Positions 26,648 through 48,350 of a stretch of 64,000 nucleotides of DNA are shown one piece after another. Position 1 is the stretch's first letter. The number at the start of each line of letters is the position of its first letter. The notes beneath the pieces were generated by a model. It saw only the letters and a program-made list of their open reading frames with translations, was not told where the DNA came from and did not search any database. Source of the DNA: Bacillota bacterium. Lineage in GTDB: Bacteria > Bacillota > SHA-98 > UBA4971. The DNA lies in assembly GCA_024653485.1 (NCBI GenBank), contig JANLFY010000001.1, positions 166,160-230,159 of the forward strand, given 5' to 3'. The position numbers and the translations under genes were made by a program.

Positions 26648-26827
26648 TCGATGTCGCGCGCCGTTTTCCTCCTCCGCGCCTTTGATCCAGAAGCTGCCTG
26701 GCAAGCAGGACGGGATTAGTTCGAGATGGTTTGGAAGGAACACCGGGGAGCATGTAGAATCAAACATGTGAGAGGTTCGGTCAAGCGGGACCGGGAAATC
26801 TCCGAGGGTGAGGAGGCAGAAGAGAGA

Positions 26828-30379: not shown

Positions 30380-30468
30380 AGACCGCGCACCATGGACACC
30401 AACGGAGGGTGGCGGAGAAGGATTCTGTGAACACTGTGTCGAAGGAAAACCGCGCAACGCGGCGAACA

Positions 30469-30828
30469 ATGTTCTTCGGCGGGTACGCGAAGCTGCCCAC
30501 CGGAATCACGGCGGAGGAACTGTACAAGGTGGTGGGGGTGGGCCTGGAGATCGAGCCCGTGACCGGCGAGATAGTTGACGCGGACTGCACCCTCGCTACT
30601 TCGACCGCCAAGAAAGTCTTCAGGCAGCTCGTGACCGGGCGCAGAATCGACGCTGACATGGGAGCCATCGTGGACGACCTGAGGGCGTACTACCATGGTG
30701 CTGCGCAGAGAGCGCTCCTGACGGCTCTCAGGGCCATCCGCGAGAAATACCGGGCGACGTGCCTCGGCCCGGCCAAGCAGCCGGCGGGTGAGGCCGACGG
30801 CGCTACGGGTGAGGGAAACGAAGGCTGA
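30469..30828 (+). CDS. DUF3870-like protein
   Basis: MFFGGYAKLPTGITAEELYKVVGVGLEIEP... matches the DUF3870 family that often follows TRAP permeases. Confidence 0.55.
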   Translation: MFFGGYAKLPTGITAEELYKVVGVGLEIEPVTGEIVDADCTLATSTAKKVFRQLVTGRRIDADMGAIVDDLRAYYHGAAQRALLTALRAIREKYRATCLGPAKQPAGEADGATGEGNEG

Positions 30829-31006: not shown

Positions 31007-31114
31007 ATCCGCTGCTGAGGGCGGCTAGCGATCCTGCTGGTTACGGTCGGAGCATCCGGGTCCGCCCAGCGGGCGAGACTAGTGCCGATACGAGAGAAGG
31101 AGGTAGCGGTAAGC

Positions 31115-32601: not shown

Positions 32602-33000
32602 TTGAGGCTCACGCGCGATGTGATAAGGGGCGATAGCAGACGCAAGCTGCTTGACATCAGCGGGGAGGACGTCGCTGCGTGTTACCAGTGCGGCAAGTGC
32701 TCCGCCGGCTGCGCGATGGGGGCGATGATGGATCTCCTCCCTCACCAGGTGATTAGACTCGTGCAGCTCGGGCAGATTGATGACGCGCTCGCGTCCCGAA
32801 CGATTTGGCTGTGTGCCTCGTGCCTAGCATGTAGTGCGCGGTGTCCGAGGGGCGTGAGCCTGCCGCACGTCATGGAAGCGCTCAGGGTGACGCTCCTGCG
32901 TTCGGGTGGGCGGCATCTCGACCTCTCGCGCCTCCCGTCGGATGTCTTCGAGAACGCTCCGGAGCAAGTTTTCGTGGCCGGTCTCCGGAAGTACACGTGA
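32602..33000 (+). CDS. hdrC: Heterodisulfide reductase subunit C-like (HdrC), two 4Fe-4S motifs
   Basis: CYQCGKCSAGC and CASCLACSARCP cluster motifs in a ~130-aa protein directly upstream of hdrB. TTG start is uncertain. GTG 32620 is the alternative. Confidence 0.7.
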   Translation: MRLTRDVIRGDSRRKLLDISGEDVAACYQCGKCSAGCAMGAMMDLLPHQVIRLVQLGQIDDALASRTIWLCASCLACSARCPRGVSLPHVMEALRVTLLRSGGRHLDLSRLPSDVFENAPEQVFVAGLRKYT

Positions 33001-33271
33001 CCTGCGTCGCGGCGGCGGGGAGCCTGAGTTGAGCCAGTCGGGCGGTGTTTCCGCCTGGGCTTGGCCTCGGATGCCGCGCAGGCTCGAGCCGAGACCGCCG
33101 ATCGCGGTGAGACGTGGCTTGCCACAGCCGCGCTTGCCACAGCCGCGAATGTGGCTGCACTATGGGCTTTCCTGGCCGGACGCGGGGGCGGGGAGAAAGG
33201 GAGGAGGGTCGCCGCAAGGACGCAGCCCGACGGCGCGACCCCGGGGCGGGCACGACTTGCGGCCAGGCGAG

Positions 33272-34153
33272 ATGGGCTACGTGTATTTTCCAGGATGCAC
33301 GCTGCGGGTAAGGGCCAAAGGCTTCGAGTCGTCGGCTCTCGCTTCAGCGCGTGCGCTCGGCGTTCATCTCGAAGAGCTGCCGAATTGGCAGTGCTGCGGG
33401 GCGACATTTCCGCTGCAGGTGGATAACGCGTTTCCGCTCGTGTCCCCAGCTCGGACCCTTGCGTCCGCCAGAAAGATGGGCGGACGACTCGTGACCCTGT
33501 GCTCCGCCTGTTACAATGTGCTCAAGCGAACGAACCACGTGATGCGTACGGACGCCGACCGCCGCTTCAAGGTGAACGCTTTCATAGAGGAGGATTACGG
33601 TGGAGATGTCGAGGTCGCGCATCTGCTAGAGGTGCTCCGTGATGACGTCGGGTTCGACGAGATTGCGAAGCGCGCGAAGGTGCCCCTCGGCGGCCTCGCG
33701 GCCGCGCCCTACTACGGCTGCCTGCTGTTGAGACCCGCCGACGAGCTCGAATTCGACGACCCGGAGTCGCCCCACATCCTTGAGGATTTCCTCGCCGCTC
33801 TGGGATGCAAGGTCGTTGACCATCCGTACAAGATAGAGTGTTGCGGTAGCTACGTAGCGCTTGAGCCCGGACAGGCCGCTTTGGAGCCGAGCAGGCTTGT
33901 GGTGGAGTCGGCGAAGACAAGGGGCGCCCAGGTCATCGTGACGAGCTGCCCCCTGTGCCAGTACAATCTCGAGGTCTCGCAGGGAAGACCTCACGGCCTG
34001 GCCGGAGCAGGGGTCCCCGTGATCTACTTCACTCAGCTTCTAGCCGTCGCCCTCGGTCTTTCAGAGGATGTCTTGGGCTTTGAGGACCAGATGATCTCTC
34101 CAGGGCCGCTCCTGCGGTCCGTCGGGGCCATGGGAAGTGAGGCTACGGCATGA
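33272..34153 (+). CDS. hdrB: Heterodisulfide reductase subunit B-like (HdrB), two CCG domains
   Basis: MGYVYFPGC...QCCG and ...CPLCQYN CCG-domain signatures. Start at ATG 33272. The upstream part of the ORF is Arg/Pro-rich. Confidence 0.85.
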   Translation: MGYVYFPGCTLRVRAKGFESSALASARALGVHLEELPNWQCCGATFPLQVDNAFPLVSPARTLASARKMGGRLVTLCSACYNVLKRTNHVMRTDADRRFKVNAFIEEDYGGDVEVAHLLEVLRDDVGFDEIAKRAKVPLGGLAAAPYYGCLLLRPADELEFDDPESPHILEDFLAALGCKVVDHPYKIECCGSYVALEPGQAALEPSRLVVESAKTRGAQVIVTSCPLCQYNLEVSQGRPHGLAGAGVPVIYFTQLLAVALGLSEDVLGFEDQMISPGPLLRSVGAMGSEATA

Positions 34154-36096
34154 GGACGGGTGTGTTCGTGTGCTGGTGCGGTCTGAACATCGGCGGAGTC
34201 GTGGACGTGCCGGAGGTCGTCCGGGTAATCTCGAGTTATCCGGGGGTTGCGTGCGCCCTTGACTATCGATACATGTGCTCCGATCCGGGCCAACAGCTCA
34301 TCAAGGACACCATCAGGAGGGAGCGCCTGGACAGCGTGGTCGTTGCGGCGTGTTCGCCGGCTATGCACGAGGCCACGTTCCAGTCGGTGGCGGCAAGCGC
34401 CGGGGTGAATCCGTACAGGTGCGAGATCGCGAACATCCGCGAGCAATGCAGCTGGCCTCATCAAGATGAACCCGGCAAGGCCACGAGCAAGGCCTTGGAG
34501 CTCGTCCGAGCGGCTGTGGAAAAGGCTCGAGGCGACGAAGAGCTCTCGGCTCTATCCGTTCCTCTGACGAGGCGCGCCCTCGTCATAGGGGCGGGGATCG
34601 CCGGAATGCAGGCCGCTCTCGACATCGCAGAGGCGGGCCACGAGGTCGTGCTGGTGGAACGGCAGGCGCACATCGGAGGCCACATGGCTCAGCTTTCGGA
34701 GACGTTCCCGACCCTCGATTGCTCGCAGTGTATACTCACGCCGAAGACATCAGAGGTGGGAAGACACCCTCGGATCAAACTCCTCACGAACAGCGACATC
34801 GAATCGGTCTCAGGGTACGTGGGGAATTTCTCCGTGAAGATCCGCAGGAAGGCGACTTATGTGAACTGGGATGTCTGTACCGGCTGCGGCCTGTGCACGG
34901 AGAAGTGCCCATCCAAGAAGCCGTCCGTCTTCGAGAGAGGTCTTTCCCAGGAGCCCGCCATTGCCATCGCCTTTCCGCAGGCGGTGCCCCACAAGCCTGT
35001 GATCAGCGCCGAAGCGTGCAGGCATTTCACGAAGGGCAAGTGCGGAGTGTGCGAGAGGGCCTGCCCGGCCGGGGCAATCGACTTCGGGCAAAGGGACTCG
35101 CTTGTCGAAGAACAGGTCGGCGCGATCGTGGTTGCTACGGGATATGACCTCCATCCAAAGGCGAAGGTGGGGGAGTACGGTTACGGTGTGTACCCTGATG
35201 TCATCGACGGGCTCGAGTTCGAGCGACTCAACTCCGCGTCCGGTCCCACGCAGGGCGAGATAAGGCGTCCGTCCGACGGCAAGGTTCCTAAAGAAGTGGT
35301 GTTCATTCAGTGCGTGGGATCCCGGGATCAAGAGAACGGGTACCCCTATTGTTCGAAGATATGCTGCATGTACACGGCCAAGCATGCTCGGCTATACAAG
35401 CACAAAGTGCCTGACGGCCAGCCTTACGTGTTCTACATGGACGTGCGCGCAGGCGGTAAGGGTTACGAGGAGTTCGTGCAGCAAGCCATGGACGAGGGCG
35501 TGCTGTACCTGAGAGGCCGGGTGGCGCGGGTGTTCCAGGATGGCGACGGCCTTGCGGTGCTCGGGGTGGACACTCTCTCCGGCAAGAAGGTGGAGGTCCG
35601 CGCGGATATGGTGGTTCTCGCTACGGCCATCGTGCCCTCGAGTGGGGCGAAAGACCTCGCTCAGCTCCTCAAGACCGCCGTGGACCAATTCGGGTTCTTG
35701 TCCGAGGCTCACCCCAAGCTGCGCCCGGTGGAGAGCCTGACGCGCGGCATCTACATCGCGGGGTGCGCCCAGGCGCCGAAGGACATTCCCGACACGGTGA
35801 CTCAAGCGGGTTCCGCGGCAGCGAAGGTGCTCGCGCTCTTCTCCGCAGAGAGGCTCTCCCATTCGCCGACTGTGGCCGCCGTAGATGAGGAACTGTGCAG
35901 CGGGTGCGGGATCTGTGTGAAAGCATGCGCGTACGAGGCCCGAACGCTTGACCCGACACGGCGCGTGGCGACGGTGAATGACGTGCTGTGCGAGGGGTGT
36001 GGCGCCTGCGTCGTGGCGTGCCCGAATGGTGCCACGAGACAGAAGAACATGACGAGATCCCAGGTGTTGTCGATGATCGATGCAGTGATGGGCTAG
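34150..36096 (+). CDS. hdrA: Heterodisulfide reductase subunit A-like (HdrA): FAD domain, inserted ferredoxin domain, C-terminal 2x[4Fe-4S]
   Basis: N-terminus MRTGVFVCWCG, FAD-binding LVIGAGIAGMQAA, CTGCGLC/CGVCERACP and CSGCGICVKAC/CEGCGACVVACP clusters. ATGA overlap with hdrB. Confidence 0.9.
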   Translation: MRTGVFVCWCGLNIGGVVDVPEVVRVISSYPGVACALDYRYMCSDPGQQLIKDTIRRERLDSVVVAACSPAMHEATFQSVAASAGVNPYRCEIANIREQCSWPHQDEPGKATSKALELVRAAVEKARGDEELSALSVPLTRRALVIGAGIAGMQAALDIAEAGHEVVLVERQAHIGGHMAQLSETFPTLDCSQCILTPKTSEVGRHPRIKLLTNSDIESVSGYVGNFSVKIRRKATYVNWDVCTGCGLCTEKCPSKKPSVFERGLSQEPAIAIAFPQAVPHKPVISAEACRHFTKGKCGVCERACPAGAIDFGQRDSLVEEQVGAIVVATGYDLHPKAKVGEYGYGVYPDVIDGLEFERLNSASGPTQGEIRRPSDGKVPKEVVFIQCVGSRDQENGYPYCSKICCMYTAKHARLYKHKVPDGQPYVFYMDVRAGGKGYEEFVQQAMDEGVLYLRGRVARVFQDGDGLAVLGVDTLSGKKVEVRADMVVLATAIVPSSGAKDLAQLLKTAVDQFGFLSEAHPKLRPVESLTRGIYIAGCAQAPKDIPDTVTQAGSAAAKVLALFSAERLSHSPTVAAVDEELCSGCGICVKACAYEARTLDPTRRVATVNDVLCEGCGACVVACPNGATRQKNMTRSQVLSMIDAVMG

Positions 36097-36216
36097 ACCG
36101 CGCACACGAGGAGGCGGAAAGCTGCTCGGAGCGGTCAGAGCGGTCGGATTTGTCCTGCGGGGCTGCCGTCGCGGCTTGCGCGGCAATGGCTATGACGACA
36201 CAGCTTGGGATGAGGT

Positions 36217-39200
36217 GTGATTTTAGGGATGGTGCCAGCTGAAGCGCGTTCGAGAGGGTCCGTGCTGGTAGTCGGAGGCGGCGTGGCTGGGATGCACGCC
36301 TCGCTCATCCTGGCGGAGGCAGGCGTGCATGTGTACCTGGTGGACTCGTCCGCCACGGTGGGCGGGCTCTGGAACCTCCTCGACAAGACATTCCCGACCC
36401 ATAGCTGCGGGATCTGCCACATGTCCACGAAGAACCCGGCCTACTGTCCGGTGATCGAGGTCGCGAGGCATCCCCGTGTCACGCTCATGGTCAACAGCCT
36501 AGTGGAAGAGGTCTTGGGTGACATAGGGGACTTCCGAGTGCGGGTCAGCACTCGCCCGGAATTCGTGAAGAGCGCCCTCTGCGACGGATGCGGCGAGTGC
36601 GAGAGAGCCTGTCCAGTGGAGGTCAGGCTGCCGCGTCACCTCGGACTCGATGACCGCAAGGCGATTGTTCGACCGGGCGGTCGCGCCGTCCTCGGAGGGT
36701 ACGCTGTGGACGAGGAGGCTTGCACAAGGTGTGGGGAGTGCGCCAGGGCGTGTCCCAGGGGCGCCATAAACCTTGCTGCCGAGGGAACCGAGACCACTCT
36801 TGCGGTTGGAGCCATCATCGTGTGTTCCGGAGCTGCCATGTGTGATCCCAGCGTACGTCCGGAATACATGTACGGTTTGTCGAAGAATGTCATGACTGGC
36901 TTGGAGTTCGAGAGGGTCTCGGCAGCCGCTCTCCTGAGCAATGAGGGTCTCCTCAGACCGGGCGATGGGGCGAGGCCCGACAGGATCGCCTTCATCCAGT
37001 GCGTGGGCTCGCGTGACAGGTCGAGGGCGAGCCCGTACTGCTCTTCGGTTTGTTGCATGTACGCCGTCAAAGAGGCGATCATTGCGAAGACGCTGGTGCC
37101 CGAGGCGTCGGTGAAGGTTTTCTATACGGATGTGAGGGCTCTTGGCAAGGGGTACGAGGAGTACTACGTCCGCGCAAAGGCCCTCGGCGTCGAGTTTGAG
37201 AACTGCAGGGTGTCTAGCGTCGAGGACAACGAAGGCGCTCTCGAGGTGCGCGCGGAGTCCGGCGGTGTGGTAAGGCGCGATAGCTTTGACCTCGTGGTGC
37301 TTTCGAACGGCTTTGTACCCGCAGGGAGCCTCATCAGCATCGGAGCCGTGCTCGGGCTCGAGCGGGACGAGTTCGGGTTCGTGAGGCCGCTATCTCAAGG
37401 GCGCTCACGGGTGACGACGTCCCGACCAGGGGTGTACGTTTGCGGAGGGGCGGCCGGGCCCCAGGACATCCCCACGTCAGTCCTGTGGTCGGGAGCGTGC
37501 GCGCTCCAGGCGCTTAGGGCGGTTGGACCCGAGGCTGACTGGGATGAGTGGCCCGCGCTCCGACTCGACGCGGGAGAGCAGACAGATCGACCGGGCGGGG
37601 GGAGGGCCGCGGACCTGGGTTCAGAGGCCACGGTGCAGAACCAGGTTTCGACTGCGACACAGGTGGCGCCGGCGTCCGCGGCTGGTGAGACGCGAGTCGG
37701 GGTGTTCGTTTGCGAGTGCGAGGCGTCCTTGGGGAGCGTAGACCCCGCGCGCCTCGTCCATGTGTTGTCGGGAGAGCCGATGCCTGACGTGGTCGTGGTG
37801 AAAGGGATTCCTCCCGTGTGCAAGCGAGAAGGCGTGGAAGCTCTGGCGAGGGAAGCTGCGTCCCACCGGGTCAACCGCGTGGTAGTAGCCGCATGCTCGC
37901 CTAGGCGGGTCCAGGACCTCATAGGTGGCAGGCTCTCGCAAGCCGGCGTGGAGCACGGGATGGTCGAGGTAGCGAACATCCGCGAGCAGTGCGGGTGGGT
38001 GCACGACCACCCTGGCAAGGCTGAGCGAAAGGCGCGCGATCTCGTGGCGATGGCAGTTGCCAGCGTTCGGATGGCAACTGTGCTCGTGGAACGAGCCAGA
38101 CCGGTGCCGGCGGGGGCGGTGGTGATCGGCGGAGGGCCGGCCGGGATGCACGCTGCTGCTTGCCTTGCCGACCTGGGCCACCACGTTCACCTTGTGGAGA
38201 AGGACGAGATTCTCGGGGGCAGGGCTCGGGCCTTAGCCCGGACGCTTGACGGGACAGACGTTCGAGAGCTCCTCGAGAAACTCGAGGAGCGTGTCCGCTC
38301 CGACAACCGCATCACCGTTCACACGTCATCGCGGGTCGCGTCGGTTCACAGGCGAGATGGAGGGTTCAGTGTGTCCATCGTCCGCAACCGCGACTCGGGT
38401 GGTGCGGAGCCTGAAAGGCTTGCAGACGACCTTCGCTGCACCGGTGAAGGCAGCGGCTTTCGAGGCGGTCGAGGCGGTTGCGCGGAAGAGGGCGGAGCGG
38501 CGATCGCGTGCGGCGCGGTGGTCGTGGCCACAGGGGGGCGCGAGGCCCCTGGCCCTGCGAGCCTTCCGCCTCCCGACGGCGCGCGCGTCTTGACCCAAAC
38601 GGAGCTCGAGGCCCGTCTCTGGCCTTCGTTGGATATCCCGGGCGCGATCCGGAGCGTTGTGATGATACAATGCGCGGGATCTCGCGATGAAACGAGGCCG
38701 TACTGCAGCCAGGTTTGTTGCTCTCAGGCCATCAAGAACGCTATCAGGCTCAAGGAGGAGCGCCCGGATGTCGAGGTTTACGTGTTGCATCGCGATGTCC
38801 GGGTGCCGGGTGCGTGGGAGGCTTTCTATGAACGGGCGCGCGAGATGGGAGTGGTGTTCGTAAGGCACCATGACGACGCCCCGCCCAGGGTGGTCAATGA
38901 TGGCGACGAGCCGGGCGGCAGCGCCCTCGCCGTCGAAGTCCTCGACGACATCCTGGGAGAGACCATCATCATTCCTGCGGACCTCGTAGTCCTGTCAACG
39001 GGGGCGGTGGGCGCGGCCGACCGCGATCTCGCGATGGCCCTCGGGGTGCCGGTCGATGGCCACGGTTTCCTGACCGAGGCCAACGTCAAGGTCCAACCCG
39101 TGGATACATGCGTGCCAGGGGTGTACGTCTGCGGACTTGCGAGGGCACCCGGGTTCTTGAGCGATGCGCTCGTCTCAGCGGAGGCCGCAGCGGCGCGCGC

Positions 39201-39471: not shown

Positions 39472-39511
39472 GCGCCGTCGATGTAGCGAGGACGAAGGGA
39501 GGGGAGCTGCG

Positions 39512-39943
39512 ATGAGCGCTGGTGAGGAGTTCGAGCCGAGAATCGTAGCGTTCCTGTGTAACTGGTGTACATACACGGGCGCTGACCTCGCAGGTGTGTC
39601 CAGGATTCAGTACCCGCCCAACGTGCTGCCGCTTCGCGTCATGTGCTCGGGTTCGGTGGATCCGATGTACATTATCAAAGCCCTCCTGGACGGGGCGGAT
39701 GGAGTCCTCGTCGGCGGATGCCATCCCGGTGACTGTCATTACGTGAGTGGGAACTACAAGGCCAGGCGGCGCCTGGCGGTTCTCTCCGCGATCCTGGACG
39801 AGTTCGAGATAGACAGCCGGCGGGTCTGGTTCAGGTTCATCAGCGCGAGCGAGGGCGCGCTCTTCGCGAGGACCGTGCGCGACATGACAGACGCGCTGAG
39901 GTCGCTTGGACCCAATCCTGCGCGCGCGCTGTGGATCACATAG
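39512..39943 (+). CDS. mvhD: MvhD/FlpD-type methyl-viologen-reducing hydrogenase delta subunit homolog (2Fe-2S electron transfer protein of Hdr complexes)
   Basis: IVAFLCNWCTYTGADLAG...CSG...GGCHPGDCHY is the MvhD signature. GGGAGGGGAG SD. Confidence 0.85.
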   Translation: MSAGEEFEPRIVAFLCNWCTYTGADLAGVSRIQYPPNVLPLRVMCSGSVDPMYIIKALLDGADGVLVGGCHPGDCHYVSGNYKARRRLAVLSAILDEFEIDSRRVWFRFISASEGALFARTVRDMTDALRSLGPNPARALWIT

Positions 39944-39978
39944 CGCGTCCCTGCCGCGTGCAGCAGCGAGGTGTAGCC

Positions 39979-41061
39979 ATGAAGAACCTTCTAATCGCGG
40001 TGGAACAAGAGGGGAGAGAGAAGGCGCTGTCGAGCTTCCTTGCCAGACTTCTCGAAACCGGGGCTGTTGACGCGATGGTGGTTCTGGCAGAAGTCGCGCC
40101 GGGAGTAACGACGCACGTTCTCGCGAAGGACCCGCGTTTCGTGGAACGTTGGGCTCGGCCGCTCTCGCCGGTCATGCCCTCGAACGCTTCGCAGGTGGTG
40201 TCGGAAGTCGTGCGCAAGCGGCCTTCGGGCAGGGTCGGGGCCGTCTTGCGGCCGTGCGAGAGCCGGGCCCTCGTGGAGCTCATCAAGGTGAGACAGGCTG
40301 CCCCGGAGAACGTCGTCTCCATATGCGTCGACTGCACAGGGACGTATGACCCCGTAGCGTATCGGGACGCACACGGGAGCGTCGAAGGCCTCGCGTTGAG
40401 GGAAGCGTGCCGAGTGTGTCTCAATCCTACTCCTCTCGAAGACGCCCTGCCTGGCATCGTGCTCGGCTTCATTGGTCTGGACGAACGAGACGGCGTGCTC
40501 GTGTCGGTTCACGATCGTCTTGACCCTGATGTGGCTGCGGTCGTAGACGAACTCGGCTTGGCGTGCGGCGAGGACGCCGGGCGCAAACGCAGCGAGGCGG
40601 TCCGCGGGTTGGTCCAGGAACGCCAAAGCGCGTACGATGCCTTCCTTGCGGCTAGAGAGGTCTCGGGAATCGAGGCTTTCGCGAGAGAGCTCGGAGCATG
40701 TACGGGCTGCCACAACTGCCGCGTCGCGTGTCCGGTGTGCTACTGCAGGGAGTGCATCTTCGACACGGACACGTTCGAGGGCGAGCTCGGCCAGTTCGTA
40801 AGAAGGGCTGAGAGGAAAGGTGCACTGAAGGTGCCCTCCGAGACGATTCTCTACCACTTGACCAGGATGAACCACATGTCGCTCTCGTGCGTGGCGTGCG
40901 GGCAGTGCGAGCAGGCGTGCCCTGCCCGTCTGCCGCTCTTCCACCTGTTCGCGATGGCTTCCAGACGCACGCAGGCGCTCTTCGGGTACGTCCCCGGCAG
41001 GAGCCTGGAAGAGGAGCTGCCCTTCACGACGTTCAGGGAGGACGAACTCGAGCCGAGGTAG
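39979..41061 (+). CDS. Fe-S protein with 4Fe-4S dicluster domain, FrhB/FdhB-like (F420-hydrogenase beta family)
   Basis: CTGCHNCRVACPVCYC and CVACGQCEQACP motifs. The N-terminal ~250 aa resemble FrhB/FdhB-type flavin-binding domains often found next to HdrA/MvhD. Family call is tentative. Confidence 0.5.
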   Translation: MKNLLIAVEQEGREKALSSFLARLLETGAVDAMVVLAEVAPGVTTHVLAKDPRFVERWARPLSPVMPSNASQVVSEVVRKRPSGRVGAVLRPCESRALVELIKVRQAAPENVVSICVDCTGTYDPVAYRDAHGSVEGLALREACRVCLNPTPLEDALPGIVLGFIGLDERDGVLVSVHDRLDPDVAAVVDELGLACGEDAGRKRSEAVRGLVQERQSAYDAFLAAREVSGIEAFARELGACTGCHNCRVACPVCYCRECIFDTDTFEGELGQFVRRAERKGALKVPSETILYHLTRMNHMSLSCVACGQCEQACPARLPLFHLFAMASRRTQALFGYVPGRSLEEELPFTTFREDELEPR

Positions 41062-41087
41062 TTCGGGGGCGGCACCGGCAGGAGGTG

Positions 41088-41774
41088 ATGTTCGTGGCAC
41101 AGGAGATGGTCAGGGTTTTCATAATGGGCAAGGCGTACGACGTGCCGAAGGGGCTCACCATCATGAAAGCGATGGAATACGCCGGCTACCAGTTCGTCCG
41201 CGGCTGCGGCTGTCGCGGGGGGTTCTGTGGTGCGTGTGGCACAGTGTACCGCATGCCAGGCGACTATCGGATAAAGGTCGGCCTCGCCTGCCAGACGATA
41301 GTCGAGGAGGGAATGTACCTCACCCAGATTCCTGTCTTCCCTGCGAACAAGGCCGTGTACGATGTGGAAAAGACGCGCCCGACCCTGGGTGATCTCCTAA
41401 AACTGTACCCCGAGCTATCGAGGTGTCTCGGCTGCAATACTTGCACGAAGGTGTGCCCGCAGGAGCTGGATGTGATGAACTACATGGCTGCGGCCATGCG
41501 TGGCGACATCGCGCGCACCGCGGACATGTCCTTCGACTGCTTGATGTGCGGCCTGTGCGCTGCGCGCTGTCCTGCGGAGACCGTGCAGTACAACATAGCG
41601 ATCCTCGCTCGGAGGTTGTACGCAAGGCATGTCGCCAAGAGAGCCGAACACCTCGCCGTGAGGGTTCAGGAGATCCTCGACGGCAAGTTCGACGCGGCCC
41701 TCGCGGAGTTGACGAGGCTCGACCGAGCCGAGCTCGAAAGGCTCTACAACGAACGAGACATCGAACCGGAGTAG
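41088..41774 (+). CDS. Succinate dehydrogenase/fumarate reductase iron-sulfur subunit-like protein (no membrane anchor gene adjacent)
   Basis: N-terminal 2Fe-2S-type motif GCGCRGGFCGACG, then CLGCNTCTKVCP and CLMCGLCAARCP cluster motifs. GTG 41094 is the alternative start (GGAGGTG SD). Confidence 0.7.
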   Translation: MFVAQEMVRVFIMGKAYDVPKGLTIMKAMEYAGYQFVRGCGCRGGFCGACGTVYRMPGDYRIKVGLACQTIVEEGMYLTQIPVFPANKAVYDVEKTRPTLGDLLKLYPELSRCLGCNTCTKVCPQELDVMNYMAAAMRGDIARTADMSFDCLMCGLCAARCPAETVQYNIAILARRLYARHVAKRAEHLAVRVQEILDGKFDAALAELTRLDRAELERLYNERDIEPE

Positions 41775-41779
41775 GAGGG

Positions 41780-43420
41780 ATGGAAAAGGTGGCTTACACT
41801 CCGCAGATGATGGAGTCCATGCGTCTCGTGGAAGCGTCGCGCGAGAAGCGGTATACTGAGAGGCACCCGCGCCTGAGCCCCGCTGAGAAGCAGGACATTC
41901 TTCGGAGGTTCCACCCGGACTTCCGGCCGGACACCATGCGCGCGGTGAAGGTGGGGCCCTCTCGCGGTTCGATGATGCCCCACGAGCTCGTCAACGTGCT
42001 CGAGGCAAGGAGCAGGCTCGATCCTGATACCTTCACCATTGACCGGATCGACTACGATGTGGATGTGCTGGTGGTGGGAGGGGGAGGGGCGGGCTCCTCT
42101 GCGTCTTTGATGGCGCACTCTGCGGGCGCGAACGTCCTTCAAGTCACCAAGCTCAGACTGGGTGACGCCAACACAATGATGGCACAAGGCGGCATCCAGG
42201 CAGCCGACAAGCCCAACGACTCTCCGATGATCCACTATCTCGACGTCATCGGCGGCGGCGGCTTCGTGAACAAACCCAACCTCGTGAGGGCGCTCGTTGA
42301 AGACGCGCCGCTCGTGATAAAGTGGCTGGAGGATCTTGGGTGCATGTTCGACAAGGAGCAAGACGGAACCATGATCACCCAGCACGGTGGAGGCACGTCG
42401 CGCAAACGCATGCACGCCGCGCGCGACTACACCGGGGCGGAGATCATGAGGACTCTAAGAGACGAGGTGCGGAACAAGCCGATCCCCGTCATCGAGTTTT
42501 CGCCCGCGATCGAGCTTCTGTCAGACGGCGAGGGGAGGTGCACGGGGGCCGTTCTCATGAACCTCGAGACGAGGGAGTTCTTCATCGTGCGCGCCAAGAC
42601 GGTCGTCTTAGCGACGGGCGGGTTCGGAAGGCTTCACGTGGCGGGGTTCCCTACCACGAACCACTACGGAGCTACCGCGGACGGTCTCGTCATGGCCTAC
42701 CGAATTGGGGCGAACCTCATCTTCCTCGACGCGACGCAGTTTCACCCAACAGGGGCCGCGTACCCGGAGCAGATCGTCGGCCTCCTCATCACCGAGAAGG
42801 TCCGGGGCGTGGGCGCGCAGCTGGTGAACGCCCGTGGGGAGCAGTTCGTGTTCCCTCTAGAGACGAGAGACGCGGTTTCGAGCGCCATTCTCCGCGAGTG
42901 CCACGAACGGAGGGCGGGCGTGGTCACGGAGACGGGGCAGCACGGAGTGTGGCTGGACTCGCCCATGATAGAGCACATCCATGGAGAGGGCACGATACTC
43001 AGGACCCTTCCGGCCATGTTCCGCCAGTACAAACGTTTCGGGATAGACATGAGGAAGGAGCCCATTCTCGTGTACCCGACTCTTCACTATCAGAACGGCG
43101 GAGTTGAGATATCGGAGGATACGAGCACATGTGTGGAGAACTTGTTTGTGGCGGGTGAGACCTCGGGAGGCGTCCATGGACGAAATCGCCTCATGGGGAA
43201 TTCCCTGCTCGATGTGGTGGTTTTCGGGAGACGGGCCGGTCTTGCCGCATCAGAGCGGGCACGAGGCGTCAAGCCTGGAAAGCTCACTCTCGAGCACGTG
43301 AGGCGCTATCACAAAGAGCTCGATGAGGCGGGCATCGGAAGAGACAGGGTGTCGCCCATGATCCTTCCGCCCTATGCCCGTCACGAAGCCAAGCCGGGTG
43401 CCAACCCCGCGGTGCTGTAG
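41780..43420 (+). CDS. Fumarate reductase/succinate dehydrogenase flavoprotein-like subunit (FAD_binding_2) with ~90-aa N-terminal extension
   Basis: DVDVLVVGGGGAGSSA...AQGGIQAA...FHPTG...HYQNGGV... are Frd/Sdh/TfrA-type flavoprotein motifs. GTAGGAGGGA SD. Confidence 0.8.
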   Translation: MEKVAYTPQMMESMRLVEASREKRYTERHPRLSPAEKQDILRRFHPDFRPDTMRAVKVGPSRGSMMPHELVNVLEARSRLDPDTFTIDRIDYDVDVLVVGGGGAGSSASLMAHSAGANVLQVTKLRLGDANTMMAQGGIQAADKPNDSPMIHYLDVIGGGGFVNKPNLVRALVEDAPLVIKWLEDLGCMFDKEQDGTMITQHGGGTSRKRMHAARDYTGAEIMRTLRDEVRNKPIPVIEFSPAIELLSDGEGRCTGAVLMNLETREFFIVRAKTVVLATGGFGRLHVAGFPTTNHYGATADGLVMAYRIGANLIFLDATQFHPTGAAYPEQIVGLLITEKVRGVGAQLVNARGEQFVFPLETRDAVSSAILRECHERRAGVVTETGQHGVWLDSPMIEHIHGEGTILRTLPAMFRQYKRFGIDMRKEPILVYPTLHYQNGGVEISEDTSTCVENLFVAGETSGGVHGRNRLMGNSLLDVVVFGRRAGLAASERARGVKPGKLTLEHVRRYHKELDEAGIGRDRVSPMILPPYARHEAKPGANPAVL

Positions 43421-43530
43421 CACTTGTAGCACTGTTGAGTCGAGGGGAGAGGCCGCGGGGTGTGGGGTCTCAGGGTCGCACGAGTTGTCGTTGAAGCACT
43501 AAACCTGCGCATCGCGCAAAGAAGGGGCGG

Positions 43531-43821
43531 GTGACGATGCCTGGAAGCAATGGGGCGGGGCCGGCCCTAGATGAACGGCGGTCCGAGGTGCCGGTGGAGA
43601 TCAACTCAAAGTGGTGTAAGGGGTGCGACATCTGCGTGGCCTTCTGTCCCAAGGAGGTACTGACTAGACCTGAAGGGGGAAAGGCGCAGGTTGCGCACCC
43701 CGAAAAGTGTACACGTTGCGGGCTGTGCGAGATCATGTGCCCTGACCTAGCGATCGTCGTGATCCCGGCGCCCCGCAAAGGGGCGTCGATACGCGGGCAG
43801 GGAGGTGACGCTGATGCTTAG
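43531..43821 (+). CDS. korD: 2-oxoacid:ferredoxin oxidoreductase delta subunit (2x[4Fe-4S] ferredoxin)
   Basis: CKGCDICVAFCP and CTRCGLCEIMCP motifs in a 96-aa protein immediately upstream of korA. Confidence 0.8.
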   Translation: MTMPGSNGAGPALDERRSEVPVEINSKWCKGCDICVAFCPKEVLTRPEGGKAQVAHPEKCTRCGLCEIMCPDLAIVVIPAPRKGASIRGQGGDADA

Positions 43822-44950
43822 CAGTGCCGGCGCGCGTTTGATGCAGGGTAACGAGGCCTGCGCGGAAGGAGCCATCGCCGCGGGTCTACGGTTCTTCGCG
43901 GGCTACCCCATAACGCCGTCCACTGAGATCGCTGAGGAGCTCGCGCTGCTCCTTCCGAAAGTGGGCGGGAAGTTCATTCAGATGGAGGATGAGATCGCGA
44001 GCATATCAGCGATCATAGGAGCGTCGCTCGCGGGGGCGAAGTCCATGACCGCGACGAGCGGACCGGGGTTCTCCCTGAAGCAAGAGGGGATAGGATTCGC
44101 ATCGTATACCGAGGTGCCGTGCGTCATAGTGAACGTCCAAAGAGTGGGACCGAGCACGGGGGTGCCCACAGCGCCGGCGCAGGGCGACGTGATGCAGGCG
44201 CGCTGGGGGACCCACGGGGATCATCCGATAGTGGTGTTGTGTCCGTCTTCCGTCGCGGAGACTTTCTCGTTGATAATCGAGGCGTTCAACATATCGGAGC
44301 GCTGGCGGATACCTGTGGTCTTCCTGATGGACGAGGTTATCGCTCACATGCGTGAGAAGGTCGTGGTCCCCGAAGCAAGCGCGATCAGGATCGTGGAACG
44401 GCCCAGGCCTCAGGTCGCCCCGGACGAGTACCTCCCTTACGCGGCGGGCGAAGACCTGGTTCCCGCCATCGCGGATTTCGGCTCGGGATACAGATACCAC
44501 GTCACTGGCCTGACTCACGACGAGACGGGCTTCCCTACCACCAAGGCTTCCGAGGTGGACGCCCTTGCGCGCCGCCTGGACGCGAAGATGAGGAGGGCGG
44601 CCCCCCACGTCACGTTCGTGGACGAGTTCCTCGTGAACGACGCCGAGGTAGCGGTGTTTGCGTACGGTGTGACCGCTAGAGCCGCAGCCAAGGCTGTCCG
44701 CGACGCGCGAGCCCAAGGTCTGAAGGCGGGACTCGTCAAGGCGAGAACGCTCTGGCCGTTCCCCGAGGAACACGTGCGTAAGGTGGCTGAGCGGGTGCGA
44801 GCAATAGTCGTCCCCGAGATGAACATGGGCCAGCTGGTGCTGGAGGTCGAAAGGTCATCGGCGGGCCGTGCCGAAGTCGTGGGCCTTTCCCGCGTGGACG
44901 CTGAACCCATCACGCCCGACGAGATCCTGGCGAAACTGCGGGAGGTGTGA
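43814..44950 (+). CDS. korA: 2-oxoglutarate/2-oxoacid:ferredoxin oxidoreductase alpha subunit
   Basis: KorA/PorA family sequence (GYPITPSTEI, SGPGFSLKQEG). Start at ATG 43814, 5-6 nt after GGAGGTGA. Confidence 0.85.
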   Translation: MLSSAGARLMQGNEACAEGAIAAGLRFFAGYPITPSTEIAEELALLLPKVGGKFIQMEDEIASISAIIGASLAGAKSMTATSGPGFSLKQEGIGFASYTEVPCVIVNVQRVGPSTGVPTAPAQGDVMQARWGTHGDHPIVVLCPSSVAETFSLIIEAFNISERWRIPVVFLMDEVIAHMREKVVVPEASAIRIVERPRPQVAPDEYLPYAAGEDLVPAIADFGSGYRYHVTGLTHDETGFPTTKASEVDALARRLDAKMRRAAPHVTFVDEFLVNDAEVAVFAYGVTARAAAKAVRDARAQGLKAGLVKARTLWPFPEEHVRKVAERVRAIVVPEMNMGQLVLEVERSSAGRAEVVGLSRVDAEPITPDEILAKLREV

Positions 44951-44958
44951 GATCTACC

Positions 44959-45792
44959 ATGGCTACGCCTGTGACTCACTACCTGAGGACGAGCAAGATG
45001 CCGCACATATGGTGTCCGGGGTGCGGGCACGGGATAGTGCTTGGCGCCGTGTTGAGGGCGATAGATTCGAACGGCCTCGACAAGGACAAGGTATGTGTGG
45101 TTTCCGGGATAGGGTGTGCCTCACGTGCACCGGGATATCTGGATTTCAACACGCTTCACACGACGCACGGAAGGGCCATCGCTTTCGCAACCGGGATCAA
45201 AATGGCCAAGCCAGAGCTGAAGGTGATCGTGCTCACAGGTGATGGTGACGCCGCCGCCATAGGCGGGAACCACCTCATACACGCGGCGCGACGCAACATC
45301 GGCATAACTACGGTGTGCTTCAACAACAGCATTTACGGGATGACTAGCGGACAATACTCGCCCATGACTCCAACTGGGAGTCTTGCTAGCACGGCGCCAT
45401 ACGGCAACATAGAGGAGCCCTTCGACCTGTGCGACCTCGTGTACGCGGCGGGCGCGAGCTACGTCGCCCGAGGCACCGCTTACCATGCCCTCCTTCTGTC
45501 GAAGCTGATTGCGAGGGCCATAGCGACCGAGGGGTTCTCGTTCGTGGAGGCCATCACGCAGTGCCCAACGTACTATGGACGGCGCAACAAGTTGAGGTCG
45601 GCGGTAGACATGCTGAAATGGCAAAAGGAGCACGCCGTGTCCGTGGCCGCTGCATCCAAGATGTCCGCGGAGGAACTTGCAGGCAAGTTCAGGATAGGTG
45701 AGCTTGGCGTGAGGACCAGGCAGGAGTACTGCCGGAGGTACGCTGGTCTCATGGAGACGGCGCAGAAGGAGGAGGCTGAGCGGGATGCGTAA
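44959..45792 (+). CDS. korB: 2-oxoacid:ferredoxin oxidoreductase beta subunit (TPP-binding)
   Basis: N-terminal WCPGCGHG, then the TPP-binding GDGD motif. ATG 44959 after GGAGGTG. Confidence 0.85.
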   Translation: MATPVTHYLRTSKMPHIWCPGCGHGIVLGAVLRAIDSNGLDKDKVCVVSGIGCASRAPGYLDFNTLHTTHGRAIAFATGIKMAKPELKVIVLTGDGDAAAIGGNHLIHAARRNIGITTVCFNNSIYGMTSGQYSPMTPTGSLASTAPYGNIEEPFDLCDLVYAAGASYVARGTAYHALLLSKLIARAIATEGFSFVEAITQCPTYYGRRNKLRSAVDMLKWQKEHAVSVAAASKMSAEELAGKFRIGELGVRTRQEYCRRYAGLMETAQKEEAERDA

Positions 45793-46333
45793 GGAGGTCA
45801 GGCTCTCGGGAAGTGGTGGGCAGGGGCTGATCCTCGCGGGCATAATCCTTGCGGAAGCCGCTATTCGCGACGGTCACGAGGTGGTTCAGACGCAGTCGTA
45901 CGGACCGGAGGCTCGTGGCGGGGCGAGTCGCGCTGAGGTCATCATCTCCGATGAGGCCATCGACTACCCCAAAGTGGTGGCTCCAGACGTCGTCCTCGTG
46001 ATGTCTCAGGAAGCGTGCAACAAGTACGCGCGTCATGTGAAGGCCGGCGGGATGCTCGTGGTGGACGGGACCAACGTGAGGACCGTGCCGGATCTCGAGG
46101 CGGCGAACGTCGTGCGCCTACCTATCACGGAAATCGCGAGGCGTGACGCGGGTCGTCAGGTGACCGCGAACATGGTGGCTCTCGGCGCGCTCGTGGGACT
46201 AGCGGATCTTGTGACGCCAGAGGCGGCAGAGCACGCCGTGAGAGAGCGGGTTCCCAAGGGGACGGAGGACCTGAACCTGAAGGCGTTCAGACTCGGGATG
46301 AAGTGGGCGAGGGAGGCTTCGGGTTCGACATGA
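45785..46333 (+). CDS. korC: 2-oxoacid:ferredoxin oxidoreductase gamma subunit
   Basis: GSGGQG...IILAEAA motif of gamma subunits. Overlaps korB stop and sucC start. Confidence 0.85.
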   Translation: MRKEVRLSGSGGQGLILAGIILAEAAIRDGHEVVQTQSYGPEARGGASRAEVIISDEAIDYPKVVAPDVVLVMSQEACNKYARHVKAGGMLVVDGTNVRTVPDLEAANVVRLPITEIARRDAGRQVTANMVALGALVGLADLVTPEAAEHAVRERVPKGTEDLNLKAFRLGMKWAREASGST

Positions 46334-47472
46334 AACTCCATGAATTCCAGGCAAAGGACATGATGAGGCGCTACGGGATACGGACGCCCCGCGGCGAGGT
46401 TGCCAGCACGCCGGACGAGGCGGGCGAGATCGCCGCGAGGCTGGGGTGCGCGGTGGCCGTCAAAGCCCAGGTCCATGTGGGGGGTAGGGGCAAGGCAGGT
46501 GGCATCGCGGTCGCCGCCACACCGGACGAGACCAGACGCCAAGCGTCGAGGATTCTCGGAATGAGCATCAAGGGTCTTACGGTCACGAGAGTGCTCGTGG
46601 AAGAAGCTGTTAACGCTACCCGCGAATACTACGCGGGAATGACCGTGGATCGTGCGCGGCGTTCTATCGTGGTCATGGCGAGCAGCGAGGGCGGGGTGGA
46701 TATAGAGGACGTCGCCGCGCGAACGCCCGAAAGGATCGCCAAGGTCTGGGTCAGCCCACGGGACGGATTCGAACCGTGGCAAGCGAGGTCGCTCGCGCTC
46801 TCGGCGGGGTTCGAGAGAAAGGCGTTGGGCCAGGCGGGGGCGATGATAGCCAATCTCTTTCGGCTCTTCATAAGGGAGGATGCTTCGCTTGCGGAGATCA
46901 ACCCGCTCATGCTGGCTGATGACGGGCGGGTGATTGCCGCGGACGCCAAGATCACCGTCGACGACAACTCCCTTTCACGTCACCCCGAGTACCAAGCGCT
47001 GACTGGGGGAGACAGCGACGACCCGCTGGAGCAAGAGGCGTACAGGCGCGGCCTGACCTATGTCAAGCTGGACGGAAACATCGGCGTCATAGGAAACGGA
47101 GCCGGGCTCGTCATGGCGACGCTTGACGCCATCAATGCGGAAGGAGGCCGCGCTGCGGACTTCCTCGACATAGGCGGTGGCGCGAGAGCCGACGTGGTGA
47201 AGAACGCACTCGAACTCATCCTGATGGATGGCCGAGTGAGGGCCATTCTGATCAACGTGTTCGGAGGCATCACGCGGTGCGATGAGGTAGCTTCCGGTCT
47301 CCTTGCGGCGGCGGAGTCCGTGGGCGTGCGCGTGCCGATCGTCGTGCGGCTCGCCGGCACTAGGGCAGAAGAAGGAAGAGAGCTCTTGCGCGGGACTTCT
47401 GTAGTGGCCGCCGAGGGCATGGCGGATGCCGCGAGACATGTGGTGGCGCTTGCCGCGAGGGGGGTGAGCTGA
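46330..47472 (+). CDS. sucC: Succinyl-CoA synthetase (ADP-forming) beta subunit
   Basis: [17 protein letters not shown]...[17 protein letters not shown]-grasp N-terminus. ATGA overlap with korC. Confidence 0.9.
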
Positions 47473-48350
47473 TGGGTATTTTCGTGGGAGAACACACGAG
47501 GCTCGTGGTGCAGGGGATCACGGGCAGGGAAGGACGGTTTCACGCGGGACGAATGAAGGAGTACGGGACGAACGTGGTCGCGGGGATGACTCCGGGGCGG
47601 GGAGGCACTGACGTAGACGGCGTTCCCGTGTACGATACTGTGCTCGAAGCCGTGAAAGAGACGGGCGCCAACACATCGTGCATATTCGTGCCGGCTTCAG
47701 CGGCCGCGGATGCCGCGTCTGAGGCCCTTGCCGCAGGGATCGAGACGGTCGTGTGCATCACCGAGGGCATTCCCACCCTGGACGTAATGAGCGTCCTCGA
47801 CGCTGCCAAGGCTCAGGCGTTAAAGGGGAGGATCATAGGCCCGAACTGCCCGGGCCTCGTGACGTGTGGCAAGGCGCTCGTCGGCATCATGCCCGGCAAC
47901 ATTTTCACTCCTGGGCCCGTTGGCCTCATCTCCAGGAGCGGAACCCTCACGTATGAGGTAGTGAACCTGCTCACGTCGAAGGGGATAGGCCAGTCCACGT
48001 GCATCGGGGTCGGAGGTGACCCCATAATCGGGACGAACTTCGTTGACTGCCTTGCCGAATTCGAGCGCGATCCCGAGACCAGGGTGGTGGTGCTCATCGG
48101 CGAGATCGGAGGCCAAGACGAGGAGGACGCGGCGGCGTTCATCAAGGACAACGTGAGCAAACCCGTGGTGGCGTTCGTATCTGGGCGCACTGCGCCGCCT
48201 GGGAAACGCATGGGGCACGCGGGCGCCATAGTGTCTGGCAGCATGGGAACAGCCGAATCGAAGGTGAGGGCGTTCCGTGAAGCAGGGGTGCCTGTCGCCG
48301 ATAGCATCGCGGACATCGCGGATCTGGTGGCGAAGGCGTTGGGCCGGTGA
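47472..48350 (+). CDS. sucD: Succinyl-CoA synthetase alpha subunit
   Basis: CoA-binding and phosphohistidine regions (...[17 protein letters not shown]). TGATG overlap with sucC. Confidence 0.9.

Follow-up and report, generated by a model that had tools for sequence, protein, structure and literature searches.

The locus studied here raises the question of whether a heterodisulfide reductase (Hdr)-type machine, a fumarate reductase (Frd)-like protein pair, and a ferredoxin-dependent carboxylating enzyme that are encoded side by side act together, so that the reduction of fumarate pays for the reduction of ferredoxin. It lies in a 64,000-nt stretch of the genome of a Bacillota bacterium (assembly GCA_024653485.1, contig JANLFY010000001.1, positions 166,160 to 230,159), which is referred to below as the window, in a region of ~62% GC. 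The original prediction, made from the letters of the window, had described a cluster running from hdrC to sucD at positions 32602-48350, and had proposed that it encodes a soluble, Hdr-coupled, electron-bifurcating fumarate reductase feeding 2-oxoglutarate:ferredoxin oxidoreductase (KorDABC, or Kor) and succinyl-CoA synthetase (SucCD). An open reading frame (ORF) listing, together with Pfam and NCBIfam profile searches of the window proteins, recovered all of the named genes, which are co-directional on the plus strand and tightly spaced, and every computational test agrees with the proposed function. Our best reading, which we consider probable, is that of an electron-bifurcating, cytoplasmic, anchor-less fumarate reductase fed by an Hdr-type machine, with ferredoxin supplied to Kor. 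What was observed, and underlies this reading, is the set of genes, their cofactor motifs, the residues of the active site, and the conservation of the gene order.

The fumarate reductase-like pair

The flavoprotein of the pair (FrdA below) contains FAD_binding_2 as its sole Pfam domain. The fumarate-binding and catalytic residues of E. coli FrdA (H232, T244/E245, R287, H355, and R390) align with H323, T339/E340, R364, H437, and R471 of the window protein, and these residues are invariant across 12 family members from different phyla. The predicted structure of the flavoprotein (predicted local distance difference test, pLDDT, of 71.7) has its best fold matches in E. coli FrdA (1kf6) and in the SdhA subunit of M. 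smegmatis Sdh1. Since both the catalytic residues and the fold are those of this superfamily, the flavoprotein can be regarded as a bona fide fumarate reductase superfamily member.

Its sequence further places it in a distinct subfamily with a predicted non-covalent flavin. The covalent-FAD residue of E. coli FrdA, His44, corresponds to Asn132 in the window protein, and the Asn is invariant in the 12 members, as is much of an N-terminal extension of ~90 aa. No match to the C-terminal helical domain PF02910 (Succ_DH_flav_C) was obtained at E <= 0.01. The non-covalent-FAD enzymes of this family, such as His44 variants of FrdA and the soluble fumarate reductases, reduce fumarate and oxidize succinate poorly; the replacement of the covalent-FAD His by Asn thus suggests that fumarate reduction is favored over succinate oxidation. 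The top NCBIfam family for the flavoprotein is TfrA (NF004900), with 351 bits against a cut-off of 718 and a match over positions 6-418 of 546, while the NadB and SdhA/FrdA profiles score ~280 bits. All of these profiles are matched only up to approximately position 420, and the protein is below every curated NCBIfam cut-off. A closely related solved structure for the flavoprotein family was not found in the PDB search.

The partner protein FrdB has a 2Fe-2S motif and two four-cysteine CxxCxxCxxxCP motifs, without the [3Fe-4S] motif of complex II. It has no CCG domain, the CCG domains being located in a separate protein, HdrB. The suggestion that the components of the methanogen protein TfrB are split among several genes here was borne out, as different parts of the TfrB NCBIfam profile are matched by the SdhB-like FrdB (19-92), HdrC (131-221), and HdrB (408-484). 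The predicted lack of a membrane anchor gene also held: a crude hydropathy scan from hdrC to sucD found no multi-helix membrane-anchor-like protein, the only such protein being the permease of the TRAP transporter encoded upstream. The features of classical complex II, namely the covalent-FAD histidine, the membrane anchor, the PF02910 domain, and the [3Fe-4S] motif, are accordingly all missing.

The Hdr module and the double HdrA

The domain and motif set of the HdrABC bifurcating core is complete in the window. The full-length HdrA comprises the N-terminal, FAD, inserted ferredoxin, and C-terminal ferredoxin domains with intact CxGSRD...C...CC and ferredoxin motifs, and the cofactor motifs are likewise intact in HdrC (two CxxCxxCxxxC) and HdrB (two CCG). 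None of HdrA, HdrB, and HdrC attains its curated equivalog cut-off for the methanogen protein, so the window proteins are Hdr homologs and not the CoM-S-S-CoB (coenzyme M-coenzyme B heterodisulfide) reductase itself. Two families fit the HdrB of the window about equally well, SdhE of the 8-methylmenaquinol:fumarate reductase with 174 bits and HdrB with 157 bits.

The second HdrA-type protein of the cluster is a fusion of two modules. The first module (residues 17-439) aligns to positions 144-567 of HdrA and includes the FAD and inserted ferredoxin domains, whereas the second one (493-1083) aligns to positions 2-648 without the inserted ferredoxin domain and keeps the N-terminal, FAD, and C-terminal ferredoxin domains. 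The two halves show complementary domain losses, and in its domain composition the protein looks like a covalently linked asymmetric HdrA dimer. Double HdrA proteins of ~1000 aa are widespread among the homologs. One such protein occurs in a Desulfofundulus locus (L083, 1-7543), where it is accompanied by an iron-sulfur (FeS) protein, a protein of 165 aa, an FrhB-like protein, HdrC, and HdrB, while Frd is absent from the vicinity; the double HdrA module would therefore be a reusable Hdr module rather than a fumarate-specific one, serving another acceptor in that organism.

The electron donor side

The original assignment of an FrhB/FdhB-like protein encoded just downstream of mvhD stood in part. 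Pfam searches of the protein itself give a weak match to FrhB_FdhB_N (E 0.046), and Pfam and NCBIfam otherwise yield generic 4Fe-4S matches, so at this level the assignment was not supported; its homologs at ~40% identity carry PF04432, and its structural model (pLDDT 83.8) has as best PDB folds ElpB (8rvu_E, template modeling score, TM, of 0.73) and FdhB (7bkb_E, TM 0.71), with a sequence identity to ElpB/FdhB of only 19-22%. The mvhD gene lies immediately 5' of the FrhB-like gene, which is the arrangement of an Elp/Fdh-type donor arm; no gene for an FdhA/ElpA-like partner was found in the cluster. In the solved Elp-Hdr and Fdh-Hdr complexes, the FAD of the ElpB/FdhB subunit accepts a hydride from the reduced coenzyme F420 (F420H2), and this subunit feeds MvhD/ElpC and then HdrA (PMC12350162). 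By analogy, the FrhB-like protein and MvhD are predicted to be the likeliest electron entry arm in the window, the FrhB-like protein being the one donor-like component there.

Conservation of the locus

A tblastn scan with the flavoprotein, taking one genome per species, identified at least 598 relatives, and the best 80 loci (58-80% identical to the window flavoprotein over the best tblastn segment) were analyzed; gene counts refer to those 50 of the 80 loci whose upstream flank spans 7.5 kb or more. Being the best-scoring loci and mostly from gut Clostridia, they do not constitute an unbiased sample, and the fractions below should be read with this in mind. Homologs of the flavoprotein number in the thousands, the top 120 having 64-100% identity. 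The hosts of the 80 loci include gut and rumen Clostridia, Sporomusa rhizae, Christensenella tenuis, Treponema, Anaerolineae, Dehalococcoidia, WOR-3, Cloacimonadota, Planctomycetota, and Thermoplasmata archaea; gut Lachnospiraceae, Christensenellaceae, and Ruminococcaceae are among the relatives.

The pairing of the flavoprotein with an SdhB-like protein is nearly universal, the two genes being adjacent in 79/80 loci. All of the 50 counted loci have the SdhB-like gene, and the great majority also encode HdrA, beside the pair (44/50), HdrB and HdrC (43/50 each), and MvhD (40/50). A FlxA-like NAD(P)H/FAD/2Fe-2S protein is present in 36/50 loci and a FlxB-like (Fer4_22) protein in 35/50, whereas a class II fumarase on the same strand was observed in 22/50; in one locus (L042) the fumarase gene directly adjoins the other genes. 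The order in C. tenuis is FumC, HdrB, HdrC, HdrA, MvhD, FrhB-like protein, Fer4_22 protein, PyrK-like protein, FrdB, and FrdA.

Comparison with related genomes, which the original prediction had proposed as a check, supported the synteny and extended it. The conserved co-directional unit is larger than 32602-48350 and begins upstream with a TAXI-TRAP transporter at position 26726, the full order being TAXI, DUF1850, DctM, (DUF3870, malic enzyme), HdrC, HdrB, HdrA, double HdrA, MvhD, FrhB-like protein, FrdB, FrdA, KorDABC, and SucCD. The whole TAXI-to-SucCD order recurs in two assemblies (L081 and L082), where no membrane-anchor gene was seen in the locus and where the double HdrA proteins are 49% (P0251, L081) and 67% (P0244, L082) identical to that of the window. 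In a Bacillota metagenome-assembled genome (MAG) from an anaerobic digester (L001), the order is conserved from the double HdrA onward. Linkage of Kor and/or SucCD to the frd pair was found in several unrelated lineages, and the malic enzyme gene adjoins the pair also in L010, L015, L022, L025, L029, and L082.

The donor modules vary by lineage and comprise FlxAB-like (NAD(P)H), MvhAG (H2), and NuoEF-like proteins. Genes for the MvhG/MvhA NiFe hydrogenase, identified by Pfam, are inserted between mvhD and hdrCB-frdBA in two loci (L010, 6795-9229; L021, 5396-7892), for which an H2-dependent version of the fumarate reductase is therefore predicted; a third locus (L024) has an equivalent gene spacing, and its hydrogenase genes are assigned by that spacing alone. 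The korDABC genes lie just upstream in the Thermoplasmata loci L021 and L024. Another Thermoplasmata locus (L009, 10-7670) encodes NuoE-, NuoF- (FMN/NADH), and NuoG-like FeS proteins, a 1007-aa double HdrA, MvhD, an FrhB-like protein, and FrdBA. A second FrhB-like gene (~30% identical to that of the window) was observed between frdB and frdA in a Thermoflexales MAG and an Anaerolineae MAG (L033, 4446-5490, and L018, 3183-4225, respectively).

Kor and SucCD

As predicted, korDABC and then sucCD follow directly 3' of the frd pair (43531-48350). With 573 bits, KorA exceeds the generic 2-oxoacid cut-off (411), and the best matches of KorB, KorC, and KorD are 2-oxoglutarate or 2-oxoacid families. 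Adjacency of korDABC to sucCD favors 2-oxoglutarate as the Kor substrate.

Proposed mechanism and its implications

Under the preferred reading, a mid-potential two-electron donor would be oxidized on the arm formed by the FrhB/ElpB-like protein and MvhD, and the electrons would then pass to the FAD that performs bifurcation in HdrA or in the double HdrA. The high-potential electron would travel via HdrC, HdrB, and FrdB to the flavin of FrdA and on to fumarate (E0' ~ +30 mV), and the low-potential electron would go to ferredoxin. Electrons would thus be supplied to FrdA, with its non-covalent FAD, by the Hdr machine and not by quinol. Reduced ferredoxin would be used 1:1 by KorDABC for carboxylation of succinyl-CoA, which SucCD would supply from the newly formed succinate; with the TAXI-TRAP transporter and malic enzyme, this would convert a C4 dicarboxylate (or pyruvate and CO2) into 2-oxoglutarate. 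In this scheme we infer complex formation, bifurcation, the identity of the donor, and the direction of flux. Direct contact of HdrB/HdrC with FrdB is supported by the fusion of these parts in TfrB, the resemblance of HdrB to SdhE, and the adjacency of the genes in most loci.

With NADH as the donor, the overall reaction was calculated to be exergonic by ~30-40 kJ/mol, taking standard potentials of ~ -320 mV (NADH), ~ +30 mV (fumarate/succinate), and ~ -450 to -500 mV (ferredoxin). Each succinate formed would yield a single reduced ferredoxin, which equals the one needed by Kor per succinyl-CoA and provides a rationale for the recurrent hdr-frd-kor-suc linkage.

A broader proposal, which we put forward only tentatively, concerns both the variant in the window and the family as a whole. 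The Elp-like arm (the FrhB-like protein and MvhD) together with the fused, domain-complementary double HdrA may replace the Flx, Mvh, or Nuo modules, the FrhB-like protein oxidizing a hydride carrier in solution, either NAD(P)H or a deazaflavin. FrdAB may then be a universal plug-in high-potential acceptor for Hdr-based bifurcation in Bacteria and Archaea, which would pass ferredoxin 1:1 to Kor. Heterotrophic anaerobes, many Clostridia of the gut among them, would then possess a fumarate-to-2-oxoglutarate segment driven by bifurcation.

Few organic redox couples of anaerobic metabolism are as positive as fumarate/succinate. If the bifurcating fumarate reductase operates as proposed, it would represent a further class of flavin-based electron bifurcation, cytoplasmic and producing reduced ferredoxin, and would explain both the formation of succinate in anaerobes that have no quinone-linked fumarate reductase and the way in which ferredoxin-dependent carboxylation of succinyl-CoA is paid for. 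Since the family is very widespread, this would matter for models of carbon and electron flow in the gut and in sediments, as well as for efforts to engineer the production of succinate. Because the donor modules can be exchanged (NAD(P)H, H2, NuoEF-like, and Elp-like), several independent test systems are on offer.

Several observations weigh against this interpretation. On the donor side, no genes for FlxAB, hydrogenase, FdhA, or NuoEF were found across the 64-kb window, the binding of a flavin and a hydride carrier is a candidate function of the FrhB-like protein, and F420 is unusual in Bacillota. The operon carries an additional double HdrA besides its canonical HdrA. The top PDB sequence match of the flavoprotein, M. 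smegmatis Sdh1 SdhA, scores only 223 bits. KorB (322 bits vs. 364), KorC (224 vs. 235), and KorD (53 vs. 93) are below the 2-oxoglutarate cut-offs, and no fumarase is encoded in the window. We infer co-transcription from gene spacing alone. The frd pair occurs with no Hdr gene within 10 kb in 6/50 loci, where malic enzyme, Kor, or SucCD is sometimes present instead. Finally, no enzymological or structural characterization of this enzyme family was found in the literature.

Alternative explanations

Two alternatives retain most of the gene assignments and differ in how the electrons are routed. The first, which we consider unlikely, assumes two enzymes with a thiol carrier between them: HdrABC would bifurcate to ferredoxin and a disulfide (DsrC-like or of low molecular weight), and FrdAB, perhaps together with HdrB, would oxidize the thiol in the manner of TfrAB with CoM-SH and CoB-SH. 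Such a relay would make use of the two intact CCG motifs of HdrB, which are those of disulfide-reducing non-cubane clusters; TfrAB is a thiol:fumarate reductase, and the best NCBIfam match of the flavoprotein is TfrA. The Flx-Hdr complex of Desulfovibrio is thought to reduce DsrC, and this option is listed in Supplementary Note 3 of PMC6315080. However, no DsrC/TusE-like gene was detected among the window ORFs scanned, in a scan that was not exhaustive. In addition, thiol oxidation would still require HdrB, since FrdB itself lacks a CCG domain, and the conserved tight adjacency of frdBA and hdr genes suits a single complex at least equally well.

According to the second alternative, the enzyme is a soluble fumarate reductase without bifurcation, in which Hdr, MvhD, and the FrhB-like protein would do no more than connect fumarate to its donor, be it NAD(P)H, F420H2, or reduced ferredoxin, without any ferredoxin being reduced. 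Soluble NADH-dependent fumarate reductases do exist, an example being the five-subunit enzyme of Hydrogenobacter thermophilus as described in PMC13147460, and not all HdrA-like flavoproteins bifurcate, the Hyphomicrobium HdrA-like protein (6tjr) being among the PDB matches. We nevertheless find this alternative doubtful. The full-length HdrA of the window retains every domain and cysteine motif of the bifurcating methanogen enzyme, the large drop in free energy between NADH or H2 and fumarate would go unused, and the recurrent linkage to the ferredoxin-consuming Kor would be left with no rationale.

Operation of the pathway in the oxidative direction appears very improbable. In that case the TAXI-TRAP system would import 2-oxoglutarate or glutamate, Kor and SucCD would form succinate, and the Frd/Hdr enzyme would act as a confurcating succinate dehydrogenase toward malate and, through malic enzyme, pyruvate. 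Some characterized TAXI-TRAP systems are generally known to carry 2-oxoglutarate or glutamate; Kor, SucCD, and malic enzyme can each work in either direction; and some of the relatives belong to syntrophic lineages (Syntrophomonadaceae and Cloacimonadota). Against this direction, the covalent-FAD histidine needed for succinate oxidation is Asn in all members examined, and transfer of electrons from succinate (+30 mV) to NAD+ or H+ together with one ferredoxin was calculated to be endergonic by ~40 kJ/mol under standard conditions. Moreover, the homologous operon of Pseudoclostridium thermosuccinogenes serves succinate production (PMC7282089).

We likewise see hardly any likelihood that the flavoprotein/FeS pair is an L-aspartate-oxidase-like or other enoate/dicarboxylate oxidoreductase, as might be suspected from its position under every curated cut-off (NadB 280 bits vs. 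TfrA 351) and from database entries that call some homologs L-aspartate oxidase, since NadB has no FeS partner, whereas the window-type flavoprotein is almost always paired with an SdhB-like protein, fumarase is co-located in nearly one-half of the counted loci, SucCD, Kor, and malic enzyme are often neighbors, and the best folds are FrdA and SdhA. Both an L-aspartate oxidase and an AprAB/Qmo-like identity were rejected, on these grounds and on the best-scoring profiles.

Relation to known systems

The original prediction had presented the arrangement as one without a characterized bacterial counterpart, and its sense of novelty did not survive: the same hypothesis appears in PMC7282089 (citing a 2019 preprint) and in PMC6315080, so the idea of a bifurcating Hdr-linked fumarate reductase was already published in 2019 for P. 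thermosuccinogenes and for Endoriftia/Thioflavicoccus. The 'succinate operon' of P. thermosuccinogenes groups a fumarase gene with seven Flx-Hdr genes and a pair of frd genes, and its expression rises ~4-fold when CO2 is limiting (PMC7282089); according to the account given there, coupling of succinate formation to ferredoxin reduction was proposed for it by Koendjbiharie and van Kranenburg (2019 preprint). Like the window, this operon combines a soluble two-gene fumarate reductase with HdrABC and MvhD-type genes, and its gene count and order are those of the commonest arrangement found in our analysis (L042 and 35 other loci). Compared by gene content and order alone, the window differs from it in having neither FlxA/FlxB nor an adjacent fumarase, and in having the double HdrA and korDABC-sucCD.

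In Ca. Endoriftia, the Escarpia symbiont, and Thioflavicoccus mobilis, the flxABCD-hdrABC, tfrAB, and korABCD genes are interspersed in a reductive tricarboxylic acid (rTCA) cycle cluster (PMC6315080), and the same paper with its Supplementary Note 3 spells out both the thiol-relay and the direct-complex models. Co-expression support is available for the Endoriftia and T. mobilis clusters (PMC11636981), and the proposal was recapitulated in a 2026 survey (PMC13147460). These clusters share with the window the co-directional grouping of hdr, frd, and kor genes and the bifurcation idea. They belong, however, to Gammaproteobacteria with an autotrophic rTCA cycle, ATP-citrate lyase, and FlxABCD (NADH) as the donor, whereas the window, again compared by gene content and order alone, comes from a Bacillota MAG and has TAXI-TRAP, malic enzyme, and a double-HdrA/FrhB-like donor side.

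Among the enzymes with partly similar composition, Methanothermobacter TfrAB (Heim et al., 1998, as cited in PMC6315080) has a one-chain TfrB equivalent to FrdB, HdrC, and HdrB of the window, and neither enzyme is anchored. TfrA and the window flavoprotein differ in that the score of 351 bits is far under 718 and the C-terminal domain is absent from the window protein; furthermore, the CoM and CoB thiols used by TfrAB are not expected in Bacillota, and the window FrdB has no TfrB-type CCG domain. The Methanothermobacter Elp-Hdr and Methanospirillum Fdh-Hdr-Fmd complexes resemble the window in having an ElpB/FdhB-fold protein beside an MvhD/ElpC homolog and HdrABC, whereas the window has no ElpA/FdhA, and the acceptor would be fumarate via FrdAB and not CoM-S-S-CoB. 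The Desulfovibrio FlxABCD-HdrABC complex (Ramos et al., 2015), as cited in PMC6315080 and PMC7282089, shares HdrABC, the MvhD-like FlxD, and an FeS protein at the FlxC position, and differs by the FlxA/FlxB pair, absent in the window, and by the proposed acceptor, which is DsrC and not fumarate.

The five-subunit NADH:fumarate reductase of H. thermophilus (Miura et al., 2008, as summarized in PMC13147460 and PMC10052474) is a soluble, multi-subunit, irreversible enzyme that operates in the reductive TCA direction, with FrdA/FrdB-type catalytic subunits; in contrast to the window, its genes (including those for the FrdC, FrdD, and FrdE subunits) are scattered in the genome, and bifurcation is not reported for it. 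In type E succinate:quinone reductases and Campylobacter SdhABE, the CCG protein SdhE partners SdhAB (the window HdrB scores 174 bits vs. the SdhE cut-off of 500), but these enzymes are membrane-associated and quinone-linked and have neither HdrA nor MvhD. The presence of frdAB without anchor genes was also noted in a paper on a Hakuba actinobacterium, where no link to Hdr was drawn. Within the literature searched, two aspects appear to be unreported: the double-HdrA/Elp-like-arm variant without FlxAB within a TAXI-TRAP/malic enzyme/Kor/SucCD operon in Bacillota, and the breadth of donor-module swapping around one FrdAB pair.

Locus layout and neighboring genes

Features of the conserved unit are listed in Table 1. 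The predicted ATGA/GTGA overlaps were found at hdrB/hdrA (ATGA), korA/korB (GTGA), and korC/sucC (ATGA); in addition, korB and korC overlap by 8 nt, sucC and sucD by 1 nt, and the permease and DUF3870 genes by GTGA. Good Shine-Dalgarno sequences precede most starts, and the true starts of hdrB (33272), the FrhB-like gene (39979), frdB (41088), and frdA (41780) lie downstream of the long-ORF starts. The malic enzyme gene had been placed 9 kb upstream, which is true relative to the frd pair (~9 kb 5'); it ends 149 nt 5' of hdrC. In a promoter and terminator scan of the 30.3-49.3 kb region, counts were not above the shuffled expectation, and the scan is therefore uninformative on operon structure. 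Unrelated genes, encoding a subtilase, PlsY, a DUF362 protein, and a glycosyltransferase, follow downstream of sucD.

Table 1. Positions in the window of the genes of the TAXI-to-SucCD unit and of the hdrC/hdrB spacer.
Feature	Position	Strand	Evidence
TAXI-family TRAP solute-binding protein	26726-27787	+	NCBIfam TIGR02122, 374 bits; same position in L081, L082
Small membrane protein, probably DUF1850	27816-28451	+	1 hydrophobic segment; DUF1850 at equivalent position in L081, L082
Fused TRAP permease (DctQM type)	28361-30379	+	TIGR02123, 776 bits; 15 hydrophobic segments
DUF3870 protein	30376-30828	+	PF12986, E 1e-24; also in L082
NAD(P)-dependent malic enzyme	31082-32452	+	NF009501, E 8e-98, malic-enzyme part of profile
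HdrC-like protein, 132 aa	32602-33000	+	TIGR03290, E 3e-18; Fer4_8/9/17; two CxxCxxCxxxC
GC-rich hdrC/hdrB spacer, 271 nt	33001-33271		Intergenic
HdrB-like protein, two CCG domains	33272-34153	+	PF02754, two stretches, E 6e-19
Full-length HdrA	34150-36096	+	HdrA2 profile positions 1-641, 785 bits
Fused double HdrA, 1084 aa	36217-39471	+	Two HdrA modules aligned to HdrA
MvhD/ElpC-type [2Fe-2S] connector	39512-39943	+	PF02662, E 1e-50
FrhB/FdhB/ElpB-like Fe-S (flavo)protein, candidate electron-input/relay subunit	39979-41061	+	PF04432 in homologs; fold
SdhB/FrdB-like FeS protein, 228 aa	41088-41774	+	Fer2_4 and Fer4 dicluster matches
SdhA/TfrA-like flavoprotein, 546 aa	41780-43420	+	PF00890, E 2e-70
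korD, korA, korB, korC; 2-oxoacid:ferredoxin oxidoreductase, probably 2-oxoglutarate	43531-46333	+	NCBIfam
sucC, sucD; succinyl-CoA synthetase	46330-48350	+	486 and 414 bits, both above NCBIfam cut-offs

The hdrC/hdrB spacer, which is unusually long, gave no Rfam match; within it, a 15-nt sequence is exactly duplicated in tandem (GCTTGCCACAGCCGC x2, 33117-33146). Its length varies from 77 nt in L081 and 271 nt in the window to 350 nt in L082. A frameshift as the origin of the short HdrC and the 271-nt gap was considered and rejected, HdrC being of similar length in other loci (132 aa in L081/L082, 130 aa in L042) and the remaining two frames of the gap yielding nothing but low-complexity translations.

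Elsewhere in the window, an FMN_bind protein (8345-9142), a polyprenyl synthetase (11516-12667, minus strand), a heptaprenyl diphosphate synthase component I (12558-13118, minus strand), an ApbE flavin transferase (13603-14772, minus strand), and a fusion of Pyr_redox_2 (NDH-2-like) and DoxX domains (15332-17083) are encoded; the genes in 8345-17083 presumably resemble the Listeria locus for flavin-based extracellular electron transfer. They are followed by a gene for a 326-aa protein with three tandem XRE-type helix-turn-helix domains (17726-18706). The sole Rfam match in the window is a tRNA gene (63592-63666). Upstream of the TRAP/Hdr/Frd unit lies an operon on the minus strand (18797-23793) for a Liv-type ABC transporter of branched-chain amino acids, which encodes two ATPases, two permeases, and a binding protein.

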